Below are positions 16,837-64,000 of a stretch of 64,000 nucleotides of DNA, in pieces (the first letter of the stretch is position 1; each line of letters starts with the position of its first letter). Under the pieces are notes generated by a model. That model saw only the letters and a program-made list of their open reading frames with translations, searched no databases and was not told the origin of the DNA. A program made the position numbers and the translations under genes. The stretch lies in assembly GCA_000002445.1 (NCBI GenBank), contig CM000208.1, positions 3,648,001 through 3,712,000 on the forward strand. The letters are read 5' to 3'. Source of the stretch: Trypanosoma brucei (lineage: Eukaryota).

Positions 16837-18815
16837 TGGGTAGGTGTTGGGTGAACATCCTCGCAGAGCTTCTGGGTGTTGATGCCGTGGCCTTGTTAAG
16901 CTCCAAAATTGTTTTCAAGAATCACGATAGCCTAACTAAGAGCCTGCCTTGTTTACTTTTCCGCCTTTCTTTCACCCCTCCCATTCTTTCAGTAAGTATG
17001 CCTCTGTCGTTTGGCGGTTGTGAAGGGAACTTCTGCATTATTCTGTCCTACATTCCCATCCTTTGAATTTTATCCATATTCGGTTCTCCTTGATTACCTC
17101 CCCCCTGAAATGGTGGACGGGAGATCCCCCTCCCCTGGTTTATTTCTCTTTGTTCCCCTCTTCTTCCAGTTGTGTGTTTTCGCTTTAACGTACAGCGTGA
17201 TTGCGTGGGTATGTGTACGAAAGGACATTTGGGAGGCGGAAGAATTTGGGGAGGAACCGAGGCGCTGAAAAGGGTGATAGACGGTGGTGCCATCCGAGTG
17301 GTTGGTTTGACTTCGTTTTGAGCATAAAGCTCTTCTGACCACGGCGGTCCGTTGCGACTTTTTTCTAATGACGGGCCGATATATAATTAATATTTGATGG
17401 GCTGTGGAGGTGGTTCCGTACGCGTGGACGAACGTGAATACAAACATACATGTTTGTGTGTGGTGTAACGAAGCGCATGAAGGGGAGGGGTGTCTTCAAA
17501 AGTTCCGCGGCACATTTAATGCAGCGGAGGGCGATTGTCAAGAGGGTGGTAGCGTAAAAAAAAAAAGATGCAGCGGGGGCAACATTCACCTCGTGGATGT
17601 TTGTTGGTACCTGAAGAGGACTGTTGCTTTGTTTTCCGTTTCGAGGCTGGGTCGGTGAGCCCTCGAGTTCCATCTTCTTTCACGATCTTTTTCTTTTTTT
17701 TTTGTGTGTGTGTGTCTTTTTTCTTTCCTATTTTTTTTGTTTTTTGTTCAGTCGGTGTGCTATTTATATCGTAGCGTCCAGCTTCTTTCGGTTCCGTCAC
17801 AAGCTTCTGTTCTTTCCCTTAGTTGATATTTCCTCATTTTTATTCTACTGATAAGGAGGGAACCATAATACAGAGGCCTGTATTTTCCTCAAAGTTTTCT
17901 CCCGCTCCATAGCGCTTCTCTTTGGCATATCTTTTTTCCCTCTATCTTTTTCTCTTTCTTTCTTGACGTGCCTATCACTTTTGTACCTGTTTCCGACCTG
18001 CTCTTTGACATGCTTCCGTTTCCTTTTTTCCCCCTTTCTTTTTTTTTCTTGTTATTTTCGCCACACATTTTTCATATCTTTGCGTGCATACGCGAACTCA
18101 CAGATATTTATCCTTCCTTTATTGTTGTATCAAGGCTAAGCCCGAGGGACCCTGCAGTATTTAGGTTTTTAGATGAATTAAGCGTGTGTCTGTGCCCGTA
18201 TCTCAGCTTGTGAGAAGAAAAAAAAAAGAGCGGAGCCAACGTCAAAGTTGTCGTCGAGCTTCACTTTTTGTTTGATTGAGTGACTGATTGATCATTGGTT
18301 AGAAGGCGCCAATACAATAAGAAAAGAGGATTATAAAGAAAGTTGGTGAAGAAGAATTAAAGAAAAAAAAGGAACAGCAGACCGAAGTAGTAGCAAGATT
18401 ATTAGCACAAGGGGGGGGGGAAGAACTGAATAGTGGGAAATAGAGGCCTGTTATTTGTGTGGAAAGGTGACGAATTAGGCAAGCAAAGGAACTGCGGCAG
18501 TAACAAAAAAAAAAAGTATTCGCTCCCTTGTTGCACATATTCTCATACTAATACGGAGGGTGAGTGGCGAAACAGAAACTGGTGGGCATTTGTTTGGGCA
18601 GAGCGGCGCACGCAGCAGCTGAACGAACTTCATTGCCTCTTTACCGCCTCCTTCTTTTGAGTTCCGTGTACTGGTTGCGTACTTGACCATCAGTTGAGGA
18701 ACGAACACAAATATCTCCTCTTATATAAGCATAGGATAGTGGAAAAGAGGCGCAGGTGAATAAGAGGGTTATCTACGGGGATTGACATTTGTTAACCTAA
18801 CGAGCGGCATCGTTT

Positions 18816-21800
18816 GTGAGGCGTGCGATGTTACTGGATTTCGTCCTAAAGTACGTTAGAGGAACTCATCCAGCGGATTCTGAGGATGCGTCAAAAGAGG
18901 GTAGTCCCTCTGCGGCGAGTGCATATGGGGGAAAGGATAGAAAACACCATCCGCCTGCAGAGGGACACCGCTCACCGCCAGATGAAAATGTATCCGGTAA
19001 TGAACAAGGGAGGGGGATTATGACTCTCTTACCAAAGGTTCCGTCTGCAGAATCAGTGCGCGATAAACCCTTCTACAGTAACGGCAGCGGTCATGGGGAA
19101 CGAAGAGAACTTGATGGTCATGAAAAGGAATCATCAGTTGATGGGAAACACCGCCAGCACCGGTCCCACGTCCTGCCGTCCATGGATATGGATAGGGCCC
19201 CGTCTCAATTTTCGGCGAGCGGTAGCAGACAGCTGGAAGGACCTCACGGGGTTAATTGCGCCCAAGTAACTGAGCAGTCGCTAGAAGTACATGATCCTAA
19301 CGACGGTGTAGACAGATGCCACGATAGGAGTGGGACAGGAACGGCCCACGATAATAACCGATTAGCTGCAGATCAAATCGGCTGTACGGCTACGGTTGCT
19401 GAGGAGCTGCGGGCTCATAGGTCAACTACACCCATTAAAATAGTAAATGCAGCTGCGCAGAATGTGGAGGACGATATTGACGATGACAATGAGGTTGTGG
19501 GGAACGCCCTAGTCAAACCTATGACCCCCCAAAGCTACTCCTCGCTAATGTTCAATAGCGACTTCAGAAAGCTGAACTATAAGGAAGACGACATCAAGCG
19601 CCGTATTGCAGTTGGCGAGGGCCGCTCATTACTTATACTTCAGAACAGGGGTGTTTCGTGTGACGCGTTGTCTGCGATTCCCGCACTAGAAAGGCACGTT
19701 AGCGACGCGCGGAGTTGCCCTGCTCGTAGCGTACAGTCCAGCGAGTGTGCTGGTGGTGTTCTAACCTCATCTCCGCGAAAGGAAGAGCCGCAACGGGAGA
19801 GAAACTTCCACAGCGAAAAGCGGCCCCCAACAGCGGACACGGATGGCCAAACAATATGCACGTGCGGGTTGACAGTGGGCTCATCACCAACAGAACAATT
19901 CTCCTGCCCCGGGGGAGCGGCTGAAGATTCTTTTAATCGTAAGACTTGCAAAATTCACGGCACCAATTTAGGTTGCCGAGCACATTCTTCCGAGCTTATA
20001 AGTGAATGGGTCAGCGAGTGTATACCTCCTGAGCCCGTGGAACTCATTAATGTGAACGCGGGACGTCCGCGTGTAAATGTGTTGAAGAAAGGCGTCATCA
20101 ATTGTTGTGTCGCCGTCAGGAAGTCATTAGATGATGCAAAAATGATGCTTAACAACAAGTATGTCATATACTTTAGGTGGTGCCTTGGCGTGGGGTCTTC
20201 CTCTAAAGTGTTTCTTTGTTATAATCTTCATGAGAAAGCGTTCTACGCCATGAAGGTCTACAACCGTGGGAGGCTTAGACGTAAGGGTTTTGGGGCGAAC
20301 TGCGCCTTGAACAATGTGCGGCGTGAAATTGATATAATGAAGAAGTTAAGGCATCCTAACATACTTTCACTTGTTGAGGTGATCGACGACCCCTTCAGCC
20401 GAAAAATTTATTTAGTCCTTGAGCTTGCCGAGAAGGGCGCTGTCATGACATTGGAAGGTGACGGCACTGTCGTGCCAAGTGTTAGTGGGGCTGCTCTGCC
20501 AGAAGAAGAAGTCGCACGGGCTATACGTAGCGTCGTGGAAGCGTTGATTTACGTCCATGACCTTGGTATCGTTCACCGTGATGTGAAGCCGCAAAATATT
20601 CTTCTGGATGCGGAGGAGTGTGTTAAACTCTCCGATTTTGGGGTCTCAATAATGGTGGATGGGTGTACCTCACCTGTTCCACGTGAGGGAACAGTGGCGT
20701 TTCTACCCCCCGAAATGTTAGCTTCGAGTGAGGTACGGGTTGCCCTCTCTGACGCGGCATCCCATAAAGACACTAGTATCGGGAGCACGAACAGCCATCA
20801 GGTGTGCTCAAGAATGAATGACGAACTGCCCGTAAAAACACTCCCGGAAGGTGAGAGAGAAGAGATTGGTAGTCTGCAAACGACCGACACGTCTGTGAGA
20901 ACACAGAATGACAACGCTTCGGTTTCCGTTGGTAGTGAATGTAAACAAGTTGCGAGCACTGGTGTAGCTTCCTTATCGGGGAGCAATAACCCAGGTTGTG
21001 AAGTGTCTCCCTCAGACTGCGCAGGATTACCCGCATGTGATCCCACAGGTACTCCCGTGGCTGATTTCTTCAAGGCAGACGTCTTCGCCTTAGGTGTCAC
21101 TACGTTTGTGCTTCTCATGGGCCGACTGCCATGGTTGGCCCGTAGCTCCCGCTCCCAGATGAAAGCGATCAACGCGCAGCCGGATCCCTTTGAAGAGCCG
21201 CTTCGGAAGGCATACGGGTGTCCCAGCGGAGAGGGCCTGAAAGGTCCGACACTCTGCAATCGGTCGCTTCATGGCTCCGAGCCCCCAGAGAGCAGCGCAA
21301 TCTTTTTAGAGGGAACCACGGAACGGACAGCTTCACAACAGATGTTTAGCTCTTCATCATGTGGCCGGTTCTTGGCATCAAATGATGCGGATACACTTGA
21401 TCATCATGTTAGTCGTAGTTCCACCAAACCCGATTGCACCGACTGGTGTAATAGCGGTATGTCCAGGGTCAGTAGGGAAGATGAAGTCGGTGCACAACTT
21501 TTGGCATCGTCCCCGACTCAGTGCGCAATTGGTGGAGAGTGGAAAGACAGTAAGTTGCTTCAGTCGAGTGAGGTCGGAGGGTCCCCACGAGCTCACGAAG
21601 AGGCTGATGGCGCACAACGCTCTCCGTACGGTCATACTAACACGTCGATGCGTGTTTGTTGTGGTTGCAGAAGTAGTTCCAACACGGCAACCGTGCCTAC
21701 GACTTCCTTCGGTTCGTTAAGTGAAGCGGGGAAGGCGCCCGTGTCAAGAGAAAACAAGCCCGAATTTTCAGCAGTTTCATGTTTTTCTCAACCAAATGCG

Positions 21801-22292
21801 GCCGGAGAGGCGACACCCTTTCGTCGCACCCACTCTCCATCCAAGTTCCCTTTGGGTAGAAGATCAACATCTGTGTTTGTTAGCAATAATTCATCTTTGC
21901 ACAGCTGGAGGATTCAAGAGGGCCACCAACCACATGCTGGAGATGCGGTGCTCAACGAGGATTTGGAAGGTTCATTGACTAGTGACGCCAACTTCCCTCT
22001 GTCAGCGGGGAGGGAGTTTACCTTTCCTCTTTGCCAACACTGTGCTACGTGCAACAACACTAATAACGGCCCTTACACGGAGTCTGGTGTGGGAGACACG
22101 ATGTCAGGAGAACAAACCTCAGGAAGCAAAATGGAGGTGCCAGAAAGAAGAGGATTGCCAGAGACGGATACGCACAAGTGCATCTCCGCTGATGCCATTG
22201 AGTTCGTGAGGTCTTGCCTAAGGATTAATCCCATGGAACGTAGCACCATGAAGGAACTGTATGAAATGCCGTGGCTACAAAAGGGACGTTAG
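18816..22292 (+). CDS. Ca2+/calmodulin-dependent protein kinase kinase (CaMKK)-like Ser/Thr protein kinase with large inserts
   Basis: Kinase subdomains are present: GVGSSSKVF...AMKV (G-loop/VAIK); HRDVKPQNILL; SDFGVS; PPEM. The CaMKK-specific RP-type insert between beta3 and alphaC is present, and LVEVIDDPFSRKIYLVLELAEKGAVMTL matches the CaMKK hallmark [28 protein letters not shown]. Subdomain XI (FVRSCLRINPMERSTMKELYEMPWL) lies at the extreme C-terminus. Confidence 0.85.
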   Translation: MRRAMLLDFVLKYVRGTHPADSEDASKEGSPSAASAYGGKDRKHHPPAEGHRSPPDENVSGNEQGRGIMTLLPKVPSAESVRDKPFYSNGSGHGERRELDGHEKESSVDGKHRQHRSHVLPSMDMDRAPSQFSASGSRQLEGPHGVNCAQVTEQSLEVHDPNDGVDRCHDRSGTGTAHDNNRLAADQIGCTATVAEELRAHRSTTPIKIVNAAAQNVEDDIDDDNEVVGNALVKPMTPQSYSSLMFNSDFRKLNYKEDDIKRRIAVGEGRSLLILQNRGVSCDALSAIPALERHVSDARSCPARSVQSSECAGGVLTSSPRKEEPQRERNFHSEKRPPTADTDGQTICTCGLTVGSSPTEQFSCPGGAAEDSFNRKTCKIHGTNLGCRAHSSELISEWVSECIPPEPVELINVNAGRPRVNVLKKGVINCCVAVRKSLDDAKMMLNNKYVIYFRWCLGVGSSSKVFLCYNLHEKAFYAMKVYNRGRLRRKGFGANCALNNVRREIDIMKKLRHPNILSLVEVIDDPFSRKIYLVLELAEKGAVMTLEGDGTVVPSVSGAALPEEEVARAIRSVVEALIYVHDLGIVHRDVKPQNILLDAEECVKLSDFGVSIMVDGCTSPVPREGTVAFLPPEMLASSEVRVALSDAASHKDTSIGSTNSHQVCSRMNDELPVKTLPEGEREEIGSLQTTDTSVRTQNDNASVSVGSECKQVASTGVASLSGSNNPGCEVSPSDCAGLPACDPTGTPVADFFKADVFALGVTTFVLLMGRLPWLARSSRSQMKAINAQPDPFEEPLRKAYGCPSGEGLKGPTLCNRSLHGSEPPESSAIFLEGTTERTASQQMFSSSSCGRFLASNDADTLDHHVSRSSTKPDCTDWCNSGMSRVSREDEVGAQLLASSPTQCAIGGEWKDSKLLQSSEVGGSPRAHEEADGAQRSPYGHTNTSMRVCCGCRSSSNTATVPTTSFGSLSEAGKAPVSRENKPEFSAVSCFSQPNAAGEATPFRRTHSPSKFPLGRRSTSVFVSNNSSLHSWRIQEGHQPHAGDAVLNEDLEGSLTSDANFPLSAGREFTFPLCQHCATCNNTNNGPYTESGVGDTMSGEQTSGSKMEVPERRGLPETDTHKCISADAIEFVRSCLRINPMERSTMKELYEMPWLQKGR

Positions 22293-52461: not shown

Positions 52462-53502
52462 ATGACAAAGGGCAAGGGCCGTAATCCCGGTATGGGAAAT
52501 CTGGACAAGCACGTCAAACGCAAGGTGCACAAGGAACGATCGCAACCTGCAGCTCGGAAGCACCTTGGCCCACTTGAGAAACACAAGGATCATGTGGTGC
52601 GCTCGCGTAGGCGAAAGGCGAAGGTGCAGCGGCTACTTGAGCTGAAGCGGGCTGCGGCGCAACGTAATCCTGACGAGTTCCACATTAATATGACCAAAAC
52701 TGTTTTGGATGTCGAATCGGGTAAAATGAGGCGTCGACGCCTGTCAAAGGAAGATAACCGTAAGAAGATGGAGAAGACTTTGCGGCACAACACTCGCAAC
52801 TTGCATTACCTCAAGTATAAAGCGCATGCAGACTGGAGCCGCGCAAAGGAGCTGATTGAAGAGGATGCATTGGGGGCACTTACGGCAGCACCGCCTAAGA
52901 ATAAACACATAATCTTTGCAGAAGACGAAGACGAGTACCATCACTTCAATCCTCTCAAGCAACTTGACGCGACACCGGAGATGCTCAAGCAGCATCCCGC
53001 CGTGCGCGGGAGACTCTCAGTTCTACGTGAAACTGTGTTACCTGAAGAAATACTCTTGTCGGGATATCGAATGCTGTCGACAGCGCAGAAGCGGAAGGAA
53101 CGTCGTGAGATACAGAGGAAATTACAAAAAAGTGGTCTCAAAAGTGAAGAAGAACGAGCGGAGTTCGTGAAGCGACTCCATGCAAAGAAAGAGGTGAAAA
53201 TGCACCGGTTTTCTTCCCTTGTAGCAAACGCACTTGAATCTACAGACGCTGAGGCTGAGGGCGAAGATGCTGATGATCCCTGCGACGTGGATCGCCTCCT
53301 CGAGTACAAAAAGATTAAAGAGAAGGAGGAAGCCCTATTAGCAGCAAGCCGCGTTAAGGAGATTCAGCAACGCGTGCACCGCAGTAAAAAGCTTGATACC
53401 CTGGCAAGGGCGATTAAGAAGCAGAACGATGGTATTCGGTGCTCGTTAGAAAATAAGCGCAACGCCCGGTTTAAGCCAAATTCTAAGCGACGCGCTCGTT
53501 AA
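52462..53502 (+). CDS. UTP11: U3 snoRNP / SSU-processome protein UTP11
   Basis: The N-terminus HKERSQPAARKHLGPLEKHKDHVVRSRRRKAKVQRLLELKRAAAQRNPDEFHINM matches the UTP11 family signature (hrERaQP..R..lGlLEKkKDY..RA.d...K...lk.L...A..rNPDEFyf.M). A basic/coiled C-terminal half is typical of UTP11. Confidence 0.8.
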   Translation: MTKGKGRNPGMGNLDKHVKRKVHKERSQPAARKHLGPLEKHKDHVVRSRRRKAKVQRLLELKRAAAQRNPDEFHINMTKTVLDVESGKMRRRRLSKEDNRKKMEKTLRHNTRNLHYLKYKAHADWSRAKELIEEDALGALTAAPPKNKHIIFAEDEDEYHHFNPLKQLDATPEMLKQHPAVRGRLSVLRETVLPEEILLSGYRMLSTAQKRKERREIQRKLQKSGLKSEEERAEFVKRLHAKKEVKMHRFSSLVANALESTDAEAEGEDADDPCDVDRLLEYKKIKEKEEALLAASRVKEIQQRVHRSKKLDTLARAIKKQNDGIRCSLENKRNARFKPNSKRRAR

Positions 53503-54384
53503 ATAAATAATAAACGCGTGTATGGTGTGTACATTTTACTGCTGAATCATGGTTAGTATACTCGCCATGAGGGTACGCCGTTGCGTTTACATCTCTTTTT
53601 TTTTTTTCCTTCATATTCTCGCTGCGTTTCACCTCACATTCCACTGAGTGGCGGAGTGTAGAAGGGGCACCCACTGCAGGAGGAGGGAAAGTTACAAAAA
53701 TGTTCGTTTAAGGTATTGACAGTGTTTGGTGTTTAAAAGAAAAGGTAAAGTAGCAAAGAAACAGGAGGATATGACATATGATTAAAAGAGGAAGCACATG
53801 ATGTTAAGATGGTGAGCGAAGGTGAGGGATATCTTTGTGCATGTGGTCCCCGTGTTGTCCACTGCTGAAGGAGTTTTGCCTTGTCAACCGCGGTGGTATT
53901 TGGCAAAACATGTGTTCTTCTTGTGAGTGAGCCTATGCCACTGCGGCGACCTTTGATTGTTATTCACTGTGTTTACTCGCTTGTGAATAAGGTGTTTGCG
54001 TCGCCTTGTAATATCGCACTTTTGCTCTTCTGCTTATTATTATTATTATTATTTTTCGAATCGTGTCGCGTGGGGGATTGTTATTCTATTCTTTTAAAAG
54101 CTCTACAAAAAAGGGAGGAAGTCAAACAGGTAAGTGCACTAAAGGGAGTTCAACCCGCGTTGGTGCAAGGAGCACTGTGAGTAAGTAAACTGAAGGAGAA
54201 AAGGATTTGGCAGAAGGGAAAACAGTTGGTAGACATCGCCAGTTCGAAGTGAACTGGCGCGCCAACAAAAGGTAAGATTTTGCTGCATTTTGCAGAACAA
54301 AAAGGTGCCTTTGAAGGGCGGAGCAGCTGGTGAAAACAACCAGAAAGAAAACCAACTGGAAAGGAAGTTTAGGGGGCTTAGAAG

Positions 54385-57300
54385 ATGTGTGACCGTCTAA
54401 ATACAATGTCTATCATTTCTCCCAGATCAGCAGCTCCCAGCTCGGGGAGGAGACTTTCGGCGTCACGTCGGGGTCAAGATCGAGAATATCGTCGGACGAA
54501 CTCCTCGCGCTCCGTTTTATCCCAAAGGCAGAAACTTAGTGATTCCATTCACGGCACTGGAAATGCCATGGATGTATACGTGCGTGTACGACCATTTAGT
54601 GAGCGAGAATTATCCATGAACGCGCCGCAGCATAGCACGGTGCGCATTGAAGTAGACAATCCGTGCGTTCTTACGCTTTTGGACCCACAGAAGGACTTCA
54701 AACCCCGCCAATCCTACAGTTTTACACGCTGCTTTTGGTCCGTTCTTGAGAGCGACAGTGCAGACTGTGGGAACGCTGGAGATATATTAAGCGCTATAGG
54801 AACTTATATTGACCGACGCGTAGCCTCTCCTCGCTCGAACCGCCAGCGTCAAGCAACTGGAAATTCGTCCCGTTCTCACTCTGCACGTGGAAAGGGAAGC
54901 GGTGACTTCTCCGGATTTGTTGAAACATCGGGATCCAATGCGGCGTTGCTAACTGTCAACACTGTTCCGCATCCCCCGTATAGCTCACAGGCAGATGTCT
55001 ATAACGAGGTTGGTAGGCCTCTATTAGAGAATTCATTGTTAGGATACAATGGCTGTATCTTTGCATACGGGCAAACAGGTAGCGGCAAGACCTTTACTAT
55101 GCTGGGCTACACGCCAAAAGCCAGTGATTTCCGAAGGTCCAGTCGTCGACAGCAAATTTCTATCGATGAAGCTGATGGGGAGCATTTGTTTAATTCATCT
55201 AGTCCCAGACGGACGGCAACTCCACTGACCAGTAATCGTCTTCGCCGGACCTCGTGGAAAAGCAATATGGTTAGCCCACGAGACACGCGGAGTCTCAGTG
55301 GTACATTCCGGGTGGAAGCAGAGCAGTCTGGTGCCGGGGACGACAACAAGCCGTCGGTTGATCCGAATGAACTACAGGGGATTATTCCCCGCATTACCAG
55401 GGATCTTTTTCAAGGGTTACATGAGGTGCGTCATCGAGAAGCCTCTCATTCTTTTCGTGTGGAGTTGGAGTTCTATGAAATATACAATGAGAAGGTGTAT
55501 GACCTTATAAACCCGCAAAAGGATGCTGACCTAAAGATTCGCCAGAACCCACTCACAGGTCCCTACGTAGAGGGACTTTCTTCATTAGTCGTTGTTAACG
55601 AGGTACAGGTGGCTGAAGTAATTAATAGGGGAAGCGTTGATCGTCACACCTCTTGCACTAGAATGAATGATCGCAGCAGCCGCAGTCACGCCATCATTAC
55701 AATTAATATTCTGCAGCTTTCGCTCGACGGGAAGAACAGCAGCTGTCAAAAGCGTAGTAAGCTCAATCTGGTTGATCTTGCTGGATCGGAGCGTATTGGC
55801 GCGACTGGGGTGGAGGGTTTGCACTTCAAGGAATCCACGAAGATTAACTTGTCACTCACTACGTTGGGTCGAGTCATTGATTGTCTAGCTGAGCTTTCGC
55901 AGTCAAAGGTTCCTTCTGTGACTGCTCCCTATCGCGACTCCAACCTCACATGGCTACTGATGGATTCGTTGGGCGGAAACAGCAAGACATCGATGGTGGC
56001 TACTATTTCACCCCACTGTAGCAATTTTGAGGAGATGCGACAGACAATTCGTTACGCCTCTCGTGCCAGGCAGATCGTCAACGTTGCTGTAGTGAATGAA
56101 GACCCACATGTGCGTCAGATCAATATGCTCACCAATGAAGTAGAGAACCTCAAGAAGGTAATTCGCGAAAATGGAATGAACGAGTTTACCCGCGACTACG
56201 TAATTGACTTACGGCAACGCTACAGCGACTTAGAGAAGCGTTGTGTGGAACAGCAGTTGTCCCTGGTGCAACTACGTGCGGAAATAGAGGAGAATACAAC
56301 TTACAACCGCCAAGATGAACCCACTCCAGTGTCTGGAAGAGCCACGCGAGTGTTCCGCGCGGATTTGAATGGACGACGGACGCGAAACAATGTAAACGGA
56401 GACGAGGCAGATGCCTTAACTGTTTCGCCTCGAGTACCGGAATCAAGGAGATCTGCAGCTGCTGCGTGGCCCACCCCTCCCAAATCGTCCCCGTGCAATA
56501 ACACTTCAAGGAACTCCAATGCTGAGGTCACGGCGGAACTGCGAACTCAAATAAAAAGACTCAAAGACGAGCTGAATACGGTGCGAGTGGACAGTTGCCT
56601 CCAGCAGTATCACGTCAAGGAATTTGCGCTTTCCTACACAACTGCCGTTTCTAACGCCATTTGTGATACTGTCATAAAGAAGAACAAGGAATTTTTGGAT
56701 CAAGCAACTCTGTTGTTTGGCACTCGAGCTGGCAGGAGGGACCCGCACCTCCGTCCTCTAAGCAGGACTCCGCGTCGGGATGTAGATGATTCCAAGAAAG
56801 TTCCCGATTGCAGGTCCTGGCGGCCCGCTGATAAGGCTGAGAATGATAGTCGTTGCGTGACGCCAAGCCGCGCCGGAAAGGCTAAACGGGGGGACCCCGA
56901 TGCTGCGTTGGCGATTGAATGCGCCAAATACCAGACAGAGCTGCAGCGGGTTCGCGATGAACTGGGCTCAGCGATTGTGGAAAGTCAACGGACTTCGGAG
57001 GTTCTTAGGCGGCTTCAGTACGAAAGAGAAGATCTGAAGCGGAAGAATGAGGAAATAAGCTCCAAATACGAGGAAAAAGACAGAGAAGTTCGCCAGTTAA
57101 AACGTCTCTTAGAGAGTGGAGCAAGGAGCCGTGAAGAGGGTGAAGGTGGCGTTGGGAGCGCCACCGATTGGAAAAAACAAGCTGATGAAGAGTTGAACTG
57201 CTTACGCGCTGCATTGCAAAAAATATGCGAGGAACACAGTCGTGTGGAGCAACAGCACCAAGCAGAAATTCATAGCCTTATTAGCCAGCAAGACCGATTG

Positions 57301-57672
57301 TTTAATATTAGCAGCAGCCTTTTGGCCAACTGGGAAAGTCGTTCCGCCGCTCTAGATTCCTCCTTTGCACAGCTTCGAGCTCTCCTGCACAATAAGGAAT
57401 ATCAGAGCCAGCACCAACGATTACGAGACAGCATGTTAGAGCGCAGAAATTACTCTGCAGAAGTTGCCGCCGTGGATGAGCGCAAACGGCGTGACACGCA
57501 GCGGCTCCGTGAAATTATGGAACAGCTAAAGCAGAACCAGAAGGATAGTAAGGCGAGCATTCAAAAATTTGAAGAGGACGTCAGGCAACACTTCTCTGGT
57601 GTTAGAACAGCTAGGGAAGGTAACGGAGGTGAATCTTCATTCGCTAATCCGCACTCTTCACGGCCACGCTGA
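54385..57672 (+). CDS. Kinesin (N-terminal motor, C-terminal coiled coil), kinetoplastid-type with loop insertions
   Basis: Motor motifs are present: VYVRVRPFSERE, P-loop AYGQTGSGKTFTMLG, switch I NDRSSRSHAI, switch II LVDLAGSER, and neck VNEDPHVRQI. The C-terminal half (aa ~600-1095) is heptad-rich with E/K/R/L periodicity. Confidence 0.85.
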   Translation: MCDRLNTMSIISPRSAAPSSGRRLSASRRGQDREYRRTNSSRSVLSQRQKLSDSIHGTGNAMDVYVRVRPFSERELSMNAPQHSTVRIEVDNPCVLTLLDPQKDFKPRQSYSFTRCFWSVLESDSADCGNAGDILSAIGTYIDRRVASPRSNRQRQATGNSSRSHSARGKGSGDFSGFVETSGSNAALLTVNTVPHPPYSSQADVYNEVGRPLLENSLLGYNGCIFAYGQTGSGKTFTMLGYTPKASDFRRSSRRQQISIDEADGEHLFNSSSPRRTATPLTSNRLRRTSWKSNMVSPRDTRSLSGTFRVEAEQSGAGDDNKPSVDPNELQGIIPRITRDLFQGLHEVRHREASHSFRVELEFYEIYNEKVYDLINPQKDADLKIRQNPLTGPYVEGLSSLVVVNEVQVAEVINRGSVDRHTSCTRMNDRSSRSHAIITINILQLSLDGKNSSCQKRSKLNLVDLAGSERIGATGVEGLHFKESTKINLSLTTLGRVIDCLAELSQSKVPSVTAPYRDSNLTWLLMDSLGGNSKTSMVATISPHCSNFEEMRQTIRYASRARQIVNVAVVNEDPHVRQINMLTNEVENLKKVIRENGMNEFTRDYVIDLRQRYSDLEKRCVEQQLSLVQLRAEIEENTTYNRQDEPTPVSGRATRVFRADLNGRRTRNNVNGDEADALTVSPRVPESRRSAAAAWPTPPKSSPCNNTSRNSNAEVTAELRTQIKRLKDELNTVRVDSCLQQYHVKEFALSYTTAVSNAICDTVIKKNKEFLDQATLLFGTRAGRRDPHLRPLSRTPRRDVDDSKKVPDCRSWRPADKAENDSRCVTPSRAGKAKRGDPDAALAIECAKYQTELQRVRDELGSAIVESQRTSEVLRRLQYEREDLKRKNEEISSKYEEKDREVRQLKRLLESGARSREEGEGGVGSATDWKKQADEELNCLRAALQKICEEHSRVEQQHQAEIHSLISQQDRLFNISSSLLANWESRSAALDSSFAQLRALLHNKEYQSQHQRLRDSMLERRNYSAEVAAVDERKRRDTQRLREIMEQLKQNQKDSKASIQKFEEDVRQHFSGVRTAREGNGGESSFANPHSSRPR
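55663..56125 (+). repeat. Paralogous identity tract (kinesin 1 copy) shared with 61084-61550
   Basis: Runs of 27-65 nt are perfectly identical to the second kinesin, e.g. aatgaatgatcgcagcagccgcagtcacgccatc, agtaagctcaatctggttgatcttgctggatcggagcgtattggcgc, tccaacctcacatggctactgatggattcgttgggcggaaacagcaagacatcgatggtggctac. Confidence 0.9.
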
Positions 57673-60156
57673 GGGCCTCCACCCCGCAGTAGGGTTAGTA
57701 CCTTAAAATGAGGAAAGGACACAATGAGAAGGGGTGCTGCATATAAAAGGGAAATAATGAGCGGGTAATGGCCGTGTGTGGACATTAGAAGAGGGAGGGA
57801 GGGTAATTCGTTCGAATACAACGAATTGGTGACCCCCCACACACATATGTTAGCTTTGGTGACTGACTGTTGGCCCACTTGCCCTTCAAACTGTTTCATT
57901 CGGGTCCCTATGTACGTGGATGTGACAAAGCCCACGAAGGTAATTGCTGATGACTTGCACTACGCTTCATTGGATATCTTTGCTGTCTGTCATCTGTGTT
58001 TTGGTCGTTTTTTTTGTTTCTTTTCACGGTCACACAGGAGAAATAGGCGAAATTACTTTCGATATTCCGTGAAGTCCTATCTAGAGCAGGGGAGTAAGGG
58101 AAACCTGTATAAAATATGCCAAGTAGGCAGCAGAGGAACTTGGAGTGAGTCCATGATATCGACGAATACGGCCCCGTCAGTGAGGGAAGTAAAGGCGAAA
58201 AGTGAAAACAAATATTTCTGTATCAGTGGTCGAGTAGCGTCGCCTCGGTACGGGAGTAAAGATTTTGGGAGCTTCCTCCTTTGAGTAGTGTCTGTGTTTT
58301 CATTTTGCTCTTTTTTTGATCTTTCCTCACAGCACCTCTCCTACTGCGTTGTTTCGTGTTTTACTCTAGTCCCTGCCTTTTCTTCTGTTTTTGTTTCTTT
58401 TTCTTTTTAAGTTTTCTCGGTGCGTACTTTTTGCTGTTGATTTGTGTGTGATTGTGCAAAGTCGATAGTGTTTCGGTAATTCGCTTTGTCATTTCAACTT
58501 TCGTTACTCCCCTCCCCACTCCACCTCGCATCGCTCTTCTTTCTGTTTCTACCGTTATTGCCATTCTTGTGGTTCCGTATGGTTGGAAACTGCGCCATGT
58601 TGCGCTTTCTGTAAAGTAGAGGAATGAGGGAATGGGTATATCTAGTGCAGCAATGGTGTGGTGATGAGTGGCACTACCGTTATATGGAAATTCCGTCCCG
58701 AAGAAAGTGACCTCCGTTTTTTTTTGTTTTCACACCCTCTTTTTCCTTTATATCTCGTCTTCCGTTGCTGCCGCAACGAGACTTGTTCATCTTCACTGGC
58801 ACTCTTTCATCCCTCTCCCTCCCGTTTCCTCTCTCTGTGTTTTGCCAGTGTTATGTCTCAATCGATATCCAAAACAAGCAGGCAAAGGGTATGTTTTTTT
58901 TTTATTTTTCAGCCGAATGAGCAAAGAAGCAAGTGGGGGCAGAAGGGGATAAACGACAAAAAAGCAACTGAGGGAGAATTCGCCCGTGTGTGAATAACAG
59001 TGACTCCAAAAGAATGGGTTTTTTGATTAAATAAATAAAAAAAAGAGCAATCACGCATATGTATTTATGTACGCATGTGTGCTTGTGTGCTTGTGTGCGC
59101 TTATTTAATGAAAAGTAATTTTACGATTATCATTCAAAAGCACAATAACGCGCCGTAGCTTTTACGGAAGGGAACCAGATGTTTCAGAAGTAGAGCAGGA
59201 AGGGAGAATTGTGGCTTTCGTTTGGGGAGGAAGATGAAGCGGCGACAGGTCCAGCGTTAATGATTTTATTGTATTTGTTTATCTATTTACTTATTTTTCA
59301 ATTTACTTTTATTTCTTCTTTCGTATAATATTCACATGGCCATCATCATTTTTTTTTTCGAAAACTTGCTTTTCTTTCCTCTCCTTTTCTCTCCTCCACT
59401 TCCACTTCCATTTCCACTTCCCAGACTTTCCGTATGTTCTTCGTTGTTGTTCTCGTGATGCCCTTCAGCTTCTTACCATCTCTTTCCTCTCTCTCCCCCT
59501 CCAGGTGCACACCCACGCGATTTAAAGGCACACCTCTGCCAAAGCGGGTTGAGTGGTAGCAGCGATACAAGAAACTGAGTAAAGGAAAATAAACAAATGA
59601 GGAAATGGGTGATTACAAATGCATCGGTGCCTGTAGGAATGGACAAGAAGATGGGTGTTGCATGAATGAGAGAAGGGGAAGGGAGTAACGGAGTAAGGAA
59701 GTCGTTGTTTGTGAATTGGGATGTGAACTGTTCCACTTGCCGTTTCTCTGGTGATCCTTTTTTCTTTGTTTTGTGTGAGGAAATAGAATATTTTTCTGCT
59801 GTGGCATTTTCATATGTATTTTGCACGCTTTTTTGCGTGTATGTACATATTTGTATTCATTTACCCATATATATACGACAGCTCTGAGGTATGAAGGGAC
59901 GCGCTTGCATTACTGATATTCACCTTTTTGTATTTAATCATGACATCGGCTGTGATCACGTCAGTGCCAACCCTGACGATTATTATTATTATTATTTATT
60001 ATTTACTACTTCTTGTTTTAATCACTACCCCACAGAAGACTGGTGAGAACAAGGGAAGAAAGAGAAGGTTAAGGTGAGGGACGAGGAGCGGTTATAAGGA
60101 AAGACTAATTAAGGTGAACGGTAAGGGAATTGCGTGGGATTTAGACTGCGGCAGCA

Positions 60157-63100
60157 ATGGTGAGATTAGATCCCAGCGCATCCACGGCGTCATCCATGAC
60201 CACAACCACAGCGACTTCTGCCCTTGATGTTTCATTGACTGAACAGGATACATCACGCAGCAACGGGGGTGCGCAGGACAGCGCGATGCGTGTGTATGTT
60301 CGCATTCGGCCTTTCACCGCGAGTGAACTCTTGGAAAATGGGGAGCGGCCCAACCGGACTATCGCTCTCGACGCGAGAGATGGCCACATAAAAATCATGG
60401 ACCCCTCACGGAACTTCACGACGCGCCTCACGTACGTTTTTGAGCGCTGCTTTGACTCGGCCGAGGCCGGACCAGGAGCGGACCAGGAGGAAGTATACAC
60501 GCATGTTGGTCGTACAGTTCTAAACAACACGGTGGATGGTTACAACGGTTGCATTTTGGCGTATGGACAAACGGGGACTGGTAAAACATACACCATGCTG
60601 GGGCCAAGGGACGTAGTGACTAGTGGGAGGTTATATCGGGAAGAGCTGGCACAGCAAAGCTCCTCTTTTTCTAGTATCACTAAGTTGAAGCTATGCTCGC
60701 CCTCACCCTCCTGCTCAGGCCAGATGAAAGGCATAGATGAGAGTGCCTTTCTGGAACTCTCATTGGGTGGAGATAGTTTTTCGACGACGGAAGAAGGTAT
60801 TATTCCTCGCTTTGCACGTGACCTCTTCAACTCCCTTCGACAAAAGCAGAGAGAAGACAGTTCGTACTCCTACCGCGTGGAAATGGAGTTCTATGAAATT
60901 TATAACGAAAAAGTCTTTGATCTCATCTCAGGTGGGCACTCTACAAATGACCTTCGGGTAAGGCACCAGACCGTACGGGGTGTTTTTGTGGAAGGTCTGG
61001 ACCGGAAGCCAATAGCAGCAGAGGAAGATTTATTGTTCTGGATGTACCGGGGAAGCATTGAGCGTCATACCGCTTCCACTAAAATGAATGATCGCAGCAG
61101 CCGCAGTCACGCCATCCTTTCCATTCACGTTGTACAAATGACACTTGATGAAAATAATAATACTAACCGCGTCAGTAGTAAGCTCAATCTGGTTGATCTT
61201 GCTGGATCGGAGCGTATTGGCGCTAGTGGGGTGGAGGGTTTGCACTTCAAGGAATCCACGAAGATTAACTTGTCGCTCACGGCACTGGGTCGAGTCATTG
61301 ATTGTCTAGCTGATGCTTCAACGGGTAAACCGAGCGCATTCTGTCCGTACCGTGAATCCAACCTCACATGGCTACTGATGGATTCGTTGGGCGGAAACAG
61401 CAAGACATCGATGGTGGCTACCGTTTCCCCGTGCGTGGAGCACTACGAAGTGACATGTCAAACACTGCGTTATGCCTCTCGTGCGAAGCAGATCGTCAAC
61501 GTTGCCGTCGTGAATGAAGACCCACAGGTACGCCAGATCAAGAAGCTCACTGCCGAAGTGTCGAGACTAAAGCAGCTACTGAACAATCAGTCTATTTGTG
61601 ACTATAGCAATGAAGAAGTTGAACGGTTGCGCCAGCGAGTGGTGCAACTTCAGCAGGAGGCGGTTGAACGTGACTTCATGTTGGAGACGTTTCGCGAAGA
61701 GTTGAACGACAAAACTAGTTTGATGAATCACCATCGCAACGGAAGTGTCACCCTTTGCAAACACAACGCTAATGGTAAACAACACCAACAGGGGGGAGAG
61801 ACGATGACCAAGGATGAGGTTAACAGCCCACACCTGATGCAAAGGACGAAGGGAAAGGAGTCAACAGGGGGTGCAGCAACCGGTGATTGTGGGGGAAAAC
61901 AGAGTTCTCGGTCAGTAAATCCGTATCTCAATGCCAGGACGTTACAGCAGCTGAAGTACCTTCGAATTGAGGCCGATCAAGACTACGGTACACTGATAGC
62001 TACGCTGGCGCGGTGTGCATTCGACGCTACAATGAATTACGAATGCACGTTGCAGAAAAACATCATGATGATAAACTCTCATAGTCATGCCTTGCGAGAA
62101 AACGTGCAAAAGATGGAGTCCAAGGAATGGTTGGTACTTGCTTCCATTGGAGATAGGCTTCTTTCCGAGTTCGCTAAGGCATGCGGAAAGCATGCGAGCA
62201 CCCCAAGGCACCACGAAACGGTGAAACCCAAGGGACTGAAGACCCCTGAAGTTGAAGTCCAGGATAAGGATAGGGATAAGGCACGAATGGAAATAAACAG
62301 GCTGCGAGAGCGGCTGTATGATGCCATGGTGGAAAACGATGGGCTCAAAGAGCGTTGTGAGGCGTTGGAAAAGGAAGCGCACAACTTCTCCAAAATGGAA
62401 AGAACTCTAAAGCAAAAGTTAGCTACTCTGCAGGCTGAACTAGATGGGGCCGGTCCTAAGGTGATTGCATGGGCAACAAACACCATGAAGGCGGAACCAG
62501 GGTTGACACCGAGAACTGCTGTGAATACCACCAGGGAAAATCACGACTGTCCCAAAGAGGGGCGGAGGATGTCACCTCTACTCCCCAGCGCGAGATGTGT
62601 CCAAGCACGCAAGGTAAAACACAGTCCCCGTCAAAAGGAGGTTGGAACCACTCGTCGTGTTGCAGAAAAAAATGGGACCGAAGCGCAGCTTGAAAACAGT
62701 GTATGTTCCCTCTCTGTTCCAGTGTTGAACCTCCGTCAGATCAGCGCAGCAGCTTTTCTCAGGTCTGCGATTGACTCTCACCACGATGCGCTGCTTGATC
62801 TTCTGATGGATAAGTTCCGCTTGGTCGGCAACCTGTACGAACAATATGCTAAGAGCTTTCTCGGAAAAAACCCTTTAACTGGGAGCAACGGAAAAAGCGA
62901 ATGCCCTGAAAAAGAGCTGACGCTTGCAGAAGAACGATTGCCAAGCAAAAAAGTCCCAAAAAGGTCTGTCGAGGTGCAGAAAAAAAGTAAGGTCGCGAGT
63001 GATATGATTTCATCCAGGGGGCGTGGTCGGGGCGGAGTTTTAACGGGAGATGATGCGCTATGCAGGGAGTCAACCGTTACCTTGCACAGTCCCAGGGGCG

Positions 63101-64000
63101 CAGAGAATGCTAAGGGGTTGCAACGACGCTGTCATCAAAAAGCGCAAGCTACGACAGTCCGAAAGACATCCAGAAGAACTCTTGGAAGCAGCAGCGATAC
63201 CTTTTTACCTGACTGCGAGGAAGAAGTCACCTTTTTGAAGGAACAGTTTACCAGGAGGGAATCTGGGATTAAAAAGGAGCATCAGTCGGTTGTCAGGGAG
63301 CTGCAAAACAACTTAGCTGAGGCAGTGAAAAGAGCGGCCCAGGAATATAAACAACTCTTGGATCAATCTAGCAACGAAAAGAAGCAGTTGAACGAGCAAC
63401 TTGCCAAGTATGGATCAATTGCGGCTGCTGCTGAGAAGACTAAGGAAAGTGTCTCCGAACAAACGCGTTTGTTCAGGGAGCAATGTAGCGGACGAACTGC
63501 AATTGAGATCGAACAGATGGAGGTTTGGGCATCCACAGTGGCGAGCAGCGTAGCGAGTATTTACCGTCTACGAAAGGAACAGGAAAGTGTTGCTGCCGCA
63601 AAGGAACGGCAACAACTTATTAATCAGGCGGCCTGCGACAAAGCGGAACTAACGTGCTCCCTTCGCCACAGAACTGAAGTGCTTTTGGAGTGGGTATCCG
63701 GGCGTGAAGTTCTCCTCTGCGAAGAAGAAAGGACTCGTGCCCACCTTGTTCTTCGTTTCCGCGAGCAGGGAATTGCGTCTGGATGTTGCGCGGAGCTTTC
63801 CACCATGCTTGTTGAGAGCCACAAGTTACTTACCGAACATTGTGTAGTTGAACACCAGGTGTTTATAGAAGGAGTTACGCCCATCTGCAATGCGTTCCTG
63901 GGCGCCAGTAATGCCCTAGCAAAGGAAAAGAGCCATGTTATGCAGTTGCAAGGTCAGGTGCGCTCTGCAGTAATGGGTCAATGCCGACAACAGTTACTGC
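60157..64000 (+). CDS. Kinesin paralogue (N-terminal motor + coiled coil), 3'-truncated by the window end
   Basis: ATG at 60157. Motor motifs are present: MRVYVRIRPFTASE, AYGQTGTGKTYTMLG, NDRSSRSHAI, LVDLAGSER, VNEDPQVRQI. The reading frame stays open to position 64000, so it is absent from the complete-ORF track. It shares nucleotide-identical tracts with the upstream kinesin. Confidence 0.85.
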   Translation, partial: MVRLDPSASTASSMTTTTATSALDVSLTEQDTSRSNGGAQDSAMRVYVRIRPFTASELLENGERPNRTIALDARDGHIKIMDPSRNFTTRLTYVFERCFDSAEAGPGADQEEVYTHVGRTVLNNTVDGYNGCILAYGQTGTGKTYTMLGPRDVVTSGRLYREELAQQSSSFSSITKLKLCSPSPSCSGQMKGIDESAFLELSLGGDSFSTTEEGIIPRFARDLFNSLRQKQREDSSYSYRVEMEFYEIYNEKVFDLISGGHSTNDLRVRHQTVRGVFVEGLDRKPIAAEEDLLFWMYRGSIERHTASTKMNDRSSRSHAILSIHVVQMTLDENNNTNRVSSKLNLVDLAGSERIGASGVEGLHFKESTKINLSLTALGRVIDCLADASTGKPSAFCPYRESNLTWLLMDSLGGNSKTSMVATVSPCVEHYEVTCQTLRYASRAKQIVNVAVVNEDPQVRQIKKLTAEVSRLKQLLNNQSICDYSNEEVERLRQRVVQLQQEAVERDFMLETFREELNDKTSLMNHHRNGSVTLCKHNANGKQHQQGGETMTKDEVNSPHLMQRTKGKESTGGAATGDCGGKQSSRSVNPYLNARTLQQLKYLRIEADQDYGTLIATLARCAFDATMNYECTLQKNIMMINSHSHALRENVQKMESKEWLVLASIGDRLLSEFAKACGKHASTPRHHETVKPKGLKTPEVEVQDKDRDKARMEINRLRERLYDAMVENDGLKERCEALEKEAHNFSKMERTLKQKLATLQAELDGAGPKVIAWATNTMKAEPGLTPRTAVNTTRENHDCPKEGRRMSPLLPSARCVQARKVKHSPRQKEVGTTRRVAEKNGTEAQLENSVCSLSVPVLNLRQISAAAFLRSAIDSHHDALLDLLMDKFRLVGNLYEQYAKSFLGKNPLTGSNGKSECPEKELTLAEERLPSKKVPKRSVEVQKKSKVASDMISSRGRGRGGVLTGDDALCRESTVTLHSPRGAENAKGLQRRCHQKAQATTVRKTSRRTLGSSSDTFLPDCEEEVTFLKEQFTRRESGIKKEHQSVVRELQNNLAEAVKRAAQEYKQLLDQSSNEKKQLNEQLAKYGSIAAAAEKTKESVSEQTRLFREQCSGRTAIEIEQMEVWASTVASSVASIYRLRKEQESVAAAKERQQLINQAACDKAELTCSLRHRTEVLLEWVSGREVLLCEEERTRAHLVLRFREQGIASGCCAELSTMLVESHKLLTEHCVVEHQVFIEGVTPICNAFLGASNALAKEKSHVMQLQGQVRSAVMGQCRQQLL
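61084..61550 (+). repeat. Paralogous identity tract (kinesin 2 copy) shared with 55663-56125
   Basis: Same identical runs as listed for 55663-56125, interleaved with divergent segments. Confidence 0.9.

Follow-up and report, generated by a model that had tools for sequence, protein, structure and literature searches.

Why should two kinesin genes that have diverged along most of their length remain identical, letter for letter, in a series of short patches within their motor domains? The question is raised by a tandem pair in a 64,000-nucleotide (nt) stretch of Trypanosoma brucei DNA (contig CM000208.1, positions 3,648,001 to 3,712,000), referred to here as the window; all coordinates below are those of the window unless another record is named, and all features lie on its + strand. 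The first gene, k1, is an open reading frame encoding 1095 amino acids (aa) at 54385..57672 (Pfam Kinesin, E = 2.4e-88), whose motor ends at residue 564. The second, k2, occupies 60157..64000, with a frame that is open from 60157 and continues past the end of the window (Pfam Kinesin, 8.2e-95). The two are in tandem on the same strand, with 5.4 kb between their starts, and k1 is very probably the flagellum attachment zone protein FAZ7 (Tb927.10.15390). A preliminary description, made from the letters of the DNA alone, had reported mosaic tracts of identity between the two kinesins, had thereby implied an exchange between copy 1 (k1) and copy 2 (k2, the copy it named), and had raised the possibility of an assembly artefact. 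Our analysis suggests that the tracts are, in all likelihood, the footprints of recurrent, bidirectional, short-tract interlocus gene conversion between FAZ7 and k2. This extends the preliminary description in three respects, namely that the exchange recurs across the genus, that it runs in both directions, and that one of the partners is a known protein.

A codon-aware alignment of k1 and k2, combined with an exact-run search, identified seven exact runs of 34, 49, 48, 28, 65, 18 and 17 nt between the partner region of k1 (55662..56108) and k2 61083-61526, and the strings and both peptides that had been quoted in the preliminary description were all found in their places. Tract 1 (61083..61116 = 55662-55695; 34 nt) encodes MNDRSSRSHAI of switch I. 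Tracts 2 and 3 (61175..61274; SKLNLVDLAGSERIGASGVEGLHFKESTKINLS) cover beta7, switch II and L11, and comprise 49 nt (55754-55802 = 61175-61223) and 48 nt (55806-55853 = 61227-61274) respectively. Tract 4 (61286..61313 = 55865-55892; 28 nt) encodes GRVIDCLA of alpha4, and tract 5 (61357..61421 = 55939-56003; 65 nt) encodes alpha5/beta8 (SNLTWLLMDSLGGNSKTSMVAT). Tracts 6 and 7 (61488..61526; QIVNVAVVNEDP) encode alpha6 and the start of the neck, in runs of 18 nt (56070-56087 = 61488-61505) and 17 nt (56092-56108 = 61510-61526). Between these tracts stand spacers that we read as unconverted: 61117..61174 (ILSIHVVQMTLDENNNTNRVS vs IITINILQLSLDGKNSSCQKR), where 32 of 60 nt differ; 61314..61356 in L12 (ADASTGKPSAFCPYRE vs ELSQSKVPSVTAPYRD), where 27 of 45 differ; and 61422..61487 (VSPCVEHYEVTCQTLRYASRAK vs ISPHCSNFEEMRQTIRYASRAR), where 27 of 66 differ. 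The earlier remark that flanking segments encode different residues in the two copies is thereby borne out. The segments between runs are approximately 50% identical, diverged like the remaining motor domain, and the tract ends fall at paralogue-specific codons. Overall, nucleotide identity between k1 and k2 reaches 78.6% over the 154 aligned codons of the tract region, while the remainder of the motor has 48.8% and the tails 37%, and no similarity of the two genes in tails or intergenic DNA was seen within the window. The 64-kb window contains exactly two copies of the 65-mer and exactly two of the 49-mer; 100 shuffles led us to expect none.

The tracts fall on the kinesin motifs that are conserved most strongly (switch I, switch II, alpha4, alpha5), a coincidence that would favour an explanation without any exchange, in which purifying selection on invariant motor motifs combines with shared codon preference. 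At the level of codons, this explanation fares poorly. Among codons for the same degenerate amino acid in both copies, 85 of 111 (77%) are identical within the tract region vs 38 of 115 (33%) elsewhere in the motor (Fisher, p = 3.6e-11); this codon difference, together with the shuffles, places the identity far beyond both chance and protein conservation. The P-loop (GYNGCI.AYGQTG.GKT) is equally conserved as protein, yet nearly every third position differs between the paralogues. The EFYEIYNEKV motif is likewise as conserved as the tract motifs, but its synonymous sites, like those of the P-loop, differ within every species. Synonymous sites in the tracts are homogenised, and amino-acid constraint does not account for their identity.

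To place these data in a broader context, the same locus was compared in T. b. gambiense, T. theileri, T. vivax, T. melophagium, T. conorhini, T. rangeli and T. cruzi, with protein states only from T. congolense. The gene order RPB3-like, Utp11, k1, k2, malate dehydrogenase is conserved in T. brucei, T. vivax, T. theileri, T. melophagium, T. conorhini, T. rangeli and T. cruzi, and both k1 and k2 have their own orthologue in every species. In a simple-distance protein tree of the motor part before switch I, k1 and k2 form separate clades; the FAZ7A/B proteins of Leishmaniinae group with k1, and a Porcisia gene groups with k2 (bootstrap 68-74%). These separate clades and orthologues place the duplication before the genus, such that the k1/k2 pair predates the Trypanosoma radiation.

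Within the tracts, the relationship is reversed, and the paralogues of each species carry species-specific synonymous states in common. At alpha5/beta8, the two copies differ at a single position per 66 nt in T. b. brucei, T. b. gambiense and T. theileri, at 2 in T. rangeli, 3 in T. cruzi, 4 in T. conorhini and 5 in T. melophagium, whereas orthologues of different species differ at 8-18; the count for the T. vivax paralogues is 18. Tract 1 has 0/33 paralogue differences in T. brucei and 3-12 in the other species, and tracts 6 and 7 together have 5/51 in T. brucei vs 12-15 in the cruzi clade. In the flanks, by contrast, the paralogues are approximately 45-55% different, and orthologues are closer to each other.

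Quartet sites reveal the same switch of signal: they support orthology in the flanks and grouping by species within the tracts. Counted as sites for species grouping/orthology, segment S7 (alpha5/beta8) gives 8/0, 15/0, 10/0, 6/0, 15/0, 14/0, 15/0 and 13/0, and segment S3 (switch II) gives 3-13 to 0 (e.g. 9/0, 6/0, 10/0, 13/0), with 5/0 and 11/0 in tracts 6 and 7; the flanks give 6/34, 2/11, 0/7 and 6/27. The spacers behave as the flanks do: quartet sites in 61117..61174 favour orthology (e.g. 2/11) and its diagnostic sites retain orthologous states, those in the L12 spacer are 0/7, 0/6 and 0/9 in favour of orthology, and orthology sites dominate in 61422..61487. When the count is limited to codons whose amino acid is identical across the four sequences, the switch is kept, with Fisher p from 5.5e-4 to 1.8e-11 in the eleven pairs without T. 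vivax and p = 0.003 in the T. brucei-T. vivax pair. Species grouping is also kept among close cruzi-clade species of similar codon usage (4/1, 8/1, 6/1), and because the switch persists within this clade, composition differences are not the explanation. Some support for constraint without exchange does come from species of skewed composition, in which species-grouping sites are also found outside the tracts (e.g. 8-14 in T. theileri comparisons). However, the synonymous states of the tracts differ among T. cruzi, T. rangeli and T. conorhini, which have similar codon usage, while matching between paralogues, and transfer from one copy to the other is seen for derived amino-acid changes (SERIG, KESTK) as well as for paralogue-diagnostic states. 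We therefore regard selection and shared codon preference as a very unlikely source of the pattern.

A functional nucleotide element embedded in both coding sequences, whether an RNA structure, a protein-binding site in the mRNA or a small-RNA target, would also account for perfect identity that includes synonymous sites, at least within one genome. Across species, no particular sequence is kept, with orthologous tracts 8-18/66 nt different, and synonymous tract sites are less conserved among orthologues than between paralogues, which is the opposite of what nucleotide-level selection predicts. The alpha5/beta8 segment is homogenised in T. cruzi as well, a species that to our knowledge lacks RNA interference. 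The predicted folds of four tract segments are no more stable than those of shuffled sequences (z = 0.06, 0.12, -0.60, 0.15), and 53500-64000 contains no Rfam match. On the z-scores about 0 and the absent Rfam match an RNA element was rejected, and we consider a functional element of any of the three kinds highly improbable.

Gene conversion between the copies is further suggested by a GENECONV-style permutation test (our own implementation; 10,000 permutations). In T. brucei, it detected runs of 25, 25, 21 and 14 polymorphic sites, of which the first three were unmatched in 10,000 permutations and the fourth had p = 0.0012. Tracts 2 and 3 account for runs of 21 and 25 sites (0/10,000 permutations as long), and tract 1 for the run of 14. 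At least one significant run was also found in each of T. theileri, T. melophagium, T. conorhini, T. rangeli and T. cruzi, mostly at alpha5/beta8, where p ranges from <1e-4 to 0.024 across six species including T. brucei. The pattern thus recurs in six species, and tract 5 is a genus-wide conversion hot spot. The exchange that the preliminary description had implied is therefore supported by the codon, quartet and permutation tests alike, as it is by the diagnostic sites described below.

Recurrence in other genomes also bears on whether the identity could be an assembly or consensus artefact, caused by collapse or by chimeric reads between the copies. Identical patches can indeed disturb assemblers, as the preliminary description had warned: in T. 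equiperdum OVI, a 10-N gap lies inside the 65-nt tract of k2 (L011 ~9232-9241; window-equivalent 61389-61421) and splits the gene into two models (P0125, 441 aa; P0126, 1175 aa). The warning thus holds for short-read assemblies; for the window itself, it can be put aside. The same runs are present in TREU927 (the window), T. b. gambiense DAL972 and T. equiperdum OVI, in the last of which the tracts stand either side of the scaffold gap, and homologous tracts are found in five other independently assembled species. Moreover, the runs (17-65 nt) are shorter than any read type, and alternate with unique sequence, each gene keeping its correct reading frame. DAL972 differs from the window at 97 positions in 9615 nt, none of them within the identical runs; its two k1 differences at 55803 and 55805 sit among the 3 nt that separate run 2 from run 3. 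Its recurrence in assemblies made independently of one another shows that the pattern is no assembly artefact, and we give such an origin next to no probability. As a separate observation on T. equiperdum, its k2 differs from that of TREU927 by substitutions at 61250, 61254 and 61275 within 26 nt of the L11 tract, with only three other substitutions in the surrounding 1.5 kb. That at 61275 restores identity with k1, while those at 61250 and 61254 break it, one of them changing Lys to Arg; the cluster may reflect either another micro-event or an error of the consensus close to the gap.

The direction of transfer can be read from diagnostic sites, defined as those with one base common to at least 5/6 of the non-brucei k1 sequences and a different base common to at least 5/6 of the k2 sequences. 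At seven such sites in 55754-55835, both T. brucei copies carry the k2 base, whereas at 55882-55883 (the Cys codon TGT of GRVIDCLA) both carry the k1 base; at site 55861 (Thr/Ala), between tracts 3 and 4, the orthologous states are retained. Adjacent tracts have opposite donor directions. The states show non-reciprocal transfers with an identifiable donor, with k2 overwriting k1 at 55754-55835 (tracts 2 and 3) and k1 overwriting k2 at 55882-55883 (tract 4). Donors are not assignable for S1 and S7, since these segments are homogenised in all species.

The events are also of different ages. The k1 protein of T. congolense already has the k2-type GASGVEGLHFKESTK, while T. congolense k2 still reads GRVIDALAD, so that not only the direction but also the age differs between the two neighbouring patches. 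Three further changes (SER-I-G, KE-S-TK and N-V-AVV, the last in tracts 6 and 7) are derived and confined to T. brucei and T. congolense, where both paralogues have them; as far as the present-day states allow, a new substitution in one copy has evidently spread to the other. The states to which the alpha5/beta8 tract has been homogenised vary from lineage to lineage, which implies that this tract was converted many times.

These data can be set against a more economical history, in which a single conversion over approximately 450 nt in the T. brucei lineage left one long heteroduplex that underwent patchy mismatch repair. All tracts do lie inside one 450-nt span, opposite donors in neighbouring patches could come from independent mismatch repair within one heteroduplex, and short-patch mismatch repair, like a short-substrate recombination pathway, has been described in T. 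brucei (PMC1904282). The differing tract ages argue otherwise: alpha5/beta8 is homogenised in six species with species-specific states, and T. congolense has the k2-type L11 residues in k1 but lacks the k1-type Cys in k2. In addition, the spacers have diverged to the same degree as the remaining motor domain, so approximately 85 spacer mismatches would all have to have been repaired back to the recipient. We consider a single event improbable as an account of the whole, and possible for part of the T. brucei pattern.

Strains of T. brucei differ at two positions beside these tracts. At 55803 and 55805, TREU927 k1 reads GCG ACT (Ala-Thr), where k1 of DAL972 and T. equiperdum reads GCT AGT (Ala-Ser), the same as k2; in the latter two, tracts 2 and 3 are fused into one 100-nt run. 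This polymorphism was dropped as a proof of ongoing conversion, since for two clustered substitutions micro-conversion and mutation are inseparable. T. congolense k1 also has Ser at this codon, and the TREU927 allele may simply be derived.

Recurrent gene conversion thus remains the reading that we favour, and several points weigh against it. The first is T. vivax, which has neither a significant permutation run nor a tract by paralogue differences, so the process is not universal. Its k1 sequence contains a one-base frameshift (GAGGG-CGGCAG) in the L11 region (L003 ~4788), with the other frame intact to ~6750, which is either an assembly indel or the mark of an incipient pseudogene, and which was repaired before comparison. 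As an observation in its own right, this only species without a significant conversion tract has alpha5 changes in both copies (DSKLTYLL in k1; LTWVL...NSRTT in k2). Second, the AT-rich codon usage of T. theileri and T. melophagium could yield part of the species-grouping signal, although the control outside the tracts speaks against this. Third, GC-biased conversion would be expected to raise the GC content at third codon positions (GC3), and such enrichment is seen in some species only. In the switch II and alpha5/beta8 tracts vs the rest of the motor, GC3 is 0.85-0.88 vs 0.61 in T. conorhini and 0.68-0.71 vs 0.49 in T. cruzi; it is slightly raised in the tracts of T. brucei, and not raised in those of T. 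theileri, T. melophagium, T. rangeli and T. vivax. This is a possible yet inconsistent hint of GC-biased conversion, and it was not counted as evidence. Finally, all conversion events are deduced from present-day sequences, those shared with T. congolense are dated from protein only, and the short tracts (28-65 nt) offer few informative sites each, such that the case is the sum of the tracts and their replication across species.

How might such exchange have been confined to islands for so long? A break or stalled fork in one motor-domain sequence could be repaired by strand invasion into the paralogue 5.4 kb away, with a few tens of bases copied in the process. Only the segments encoding invariant motifs (switch I, beta7/switch II/L11, alpha4, alpha5/beta8 and alpha6) would retain sufficient nucleotide similarity for use as a substrate, and each conversion would renew their perfect identity and so favour the next. 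The spacers, with their paralogue-specific residues and saturated synonymous differences, would end the heteroduplex, or else selection at the tract edges would remove conversions that bring unsuitable residues into them. The P-loop, once its synonymous sites had diverged, would no longer be a substrate, and homology length would play a part. The converted motifs and the never-converted P-loop offer a natural test of how much uninterrupted identity is needed for recombination. A more far-reaching proposal, which we offer tentatively and regard as doubtful, is that the islands are kept identical by motor co-evolution through conversion, or that the locus is a core-genome reporter of the repair that creates mosaic variant surface glycoprotein (VSG) genes. 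Under the former, the alpha5/beta8 and switch II surfaces may have been kept in step since before the Trypanosoma radiation, possibly because FAZ7 and k2 form a heterodimer or because both serve one specialised set of microtubules at the flagellum attachment zone. Under the latter, if true, the locus could be used to measure short-tract templated repair outside antigen genes.

The process itself is a known one, and the k1/k2 pair is a well-resolved new example of an unusually fine-grained and long-lived form of it. In trypanosomes, a classical case is reportedly that of three tandem phosphoglycerate kinase paralogues, which are said to have distinct functions and coding regions that exchange sequence; the tracts there are reportedly long, and the paralogues far more similar overall than k1 and k2. 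A passage of PMC7729029 cites Parker et al. (1995, Mol Biochem Parasitol 69:269) for gene conversion among the tandem phosphoglycerate kinase genes of African trypanosomes. More broadly, partial conversion was found in 21 of 47 T. brucei tandem arrays (Jackson 2007, BMC Evol Biol 7:54, PMC1855330). k1 and k2 resemble those arrays as tandem duplicates on one polycistronic strand, with chimaeric copies recognised by GENECONV-type and phylogenetic criteria, and with the same 'mixed dynamics' in which parts evolve in concert and other parts remain orthologous. The arrays are mostly recent or highly similar dosage repeats, however, whereas k1 and k2 are ancient and saturated in synonymous divergence, have different tails and orthologues across the genus, and exchange only in islands of 17-65 nt. 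The word 'kinesin' is absent from the main text of PMC1855330.

In tract size, the closest parallel is the break-induced templated repair of VSG genes, where inserts average ~46 bp, donors are diverged members of the family, and junctions use ~9 bp of perfect identity, with <50 bp of imperfect flanking homology needed (Nature 2026, PMC13233330). T. brucei is thus known to carry out repair of the kind proposed for k1 and k2. The organism is the same, and in both systems the copies are short and non-reciprocal, with junctions in short runs of identity and a similar tract size (28-65 nt). The two differ in that mosaic VSG formation, which was seen directly upon Cas9 breaks, creates diversity in a surface antigen exposed to immune selection, while k1 and k2 homogenise conserved motifs of core cytoskeletal genes by a mechanism that we infer.

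Concerted evolution on a larger scale is found in the same family and at the same locus (RPB3-like, Utp11, kinesins) in Leishmaniinae, whose FAZ7A and FAZ7B (Corrales et al. 2021, PMC8244899) are paralogues with different tails and locations. Two FAZ7-type copies of Leishmania martiniquensis share 990 nt with 0 mismatches (L008 10606-11595 vs 20832-21821), and two of Porcisia hertigi share 1040 nt with 9 mismatches (L010 10604-11643 vs 18653-19692). These motor-core blocks are homogenised within each species and different between species, and their N-terminal and neck/tail flanks have diverged; they are cases of large-tract concerted evolution. The block is a continuous ~1 kb and joins two k1-type copies, in contrast to the patch mosaic of k1/k2, and in Porcisia hertigi no exchange of the k2-type gene with the FAZ7 copies was seen. 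The motor identity of L. mexicana FAZ7A and FAZ7B is 52%, and gene conversion is unmentioned in the FAZ7 paper (PMC8244899). The second Porcisia copy, from L010 18023, is without a gene model in the record.

What is particular to k1 and k2 is the age of the paralogues, the very small size of the mosaic tracts and a single 66-nt hot spot that has persisted throughout the genus. Our literature search found no paper linking kinesins with gene conversion in trypanosomes. These data suggest that very short templated copying, of the size seen in mosaic VSGs, leaves lasting marks in trypanosome housekeeping genes, and has done this repeatedly in at least six species. Motor-domain phylogeny and dating, both of FAZ7/k2 and of Leishmania FAZ7A/B, are distorted by the exchanged segments. 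By inference, fragments for RNA interference, primers, guide RNAs and short reads placed in 55662-56108 or 61083-61526 would match both genes.

The identities of the two kinesins rest on the following. The k1 protein is identical to XP_828010.1 of T. b. brucei TREU927, and k2 falls in the cluster of TREU927 XP_828011.1 (P0127; 1682 aa at full length), the gene next downstream of k1, which places the window on T. brucei chromosome 10. k2 appears to be uncharacterised; we take its identifier to be Tb927.10.15400, which is a guess, and our literature search found no paper that mentions it. FAZ7 is Tb927.10.15390 in the literature, with a motor at residues 199-564 (PMC8244899; PMC4406125), and k1 is linked to it by the end of its Pfam motor match at residue 564, as stated for TbFAZ7, the link from Tb927 identifier to accession being indirect. 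Leishmania homologues of k1 likewise bear the name FAZ7, and the T. congolense orthologue is TCIL3000_10_13170. Both proteins feature a full motor-domain match (PF00225) with GQTGSGKT/GQTGTGKT, SSRSH and DLAGSE motifs. The closest solved motors to both are the kinesin-3 proteins KIF14, KIF13B and KIF1A; the assignment to a trypanosomatid-specific 'Tryp2' clade is taken from PMC8244899. Compared with k2 and the solved kinesin-3 motors, the FAZ7 motor also has two large low-complexity insertions (54742-54975 and 55135-55370), the first of ~80 aa after FTRCFWS and the second a longer loop after the P-loop helix. k2 has the second only, in a different form, and the position of the insertions is conserved among Trypanosoma k1 orthologues.

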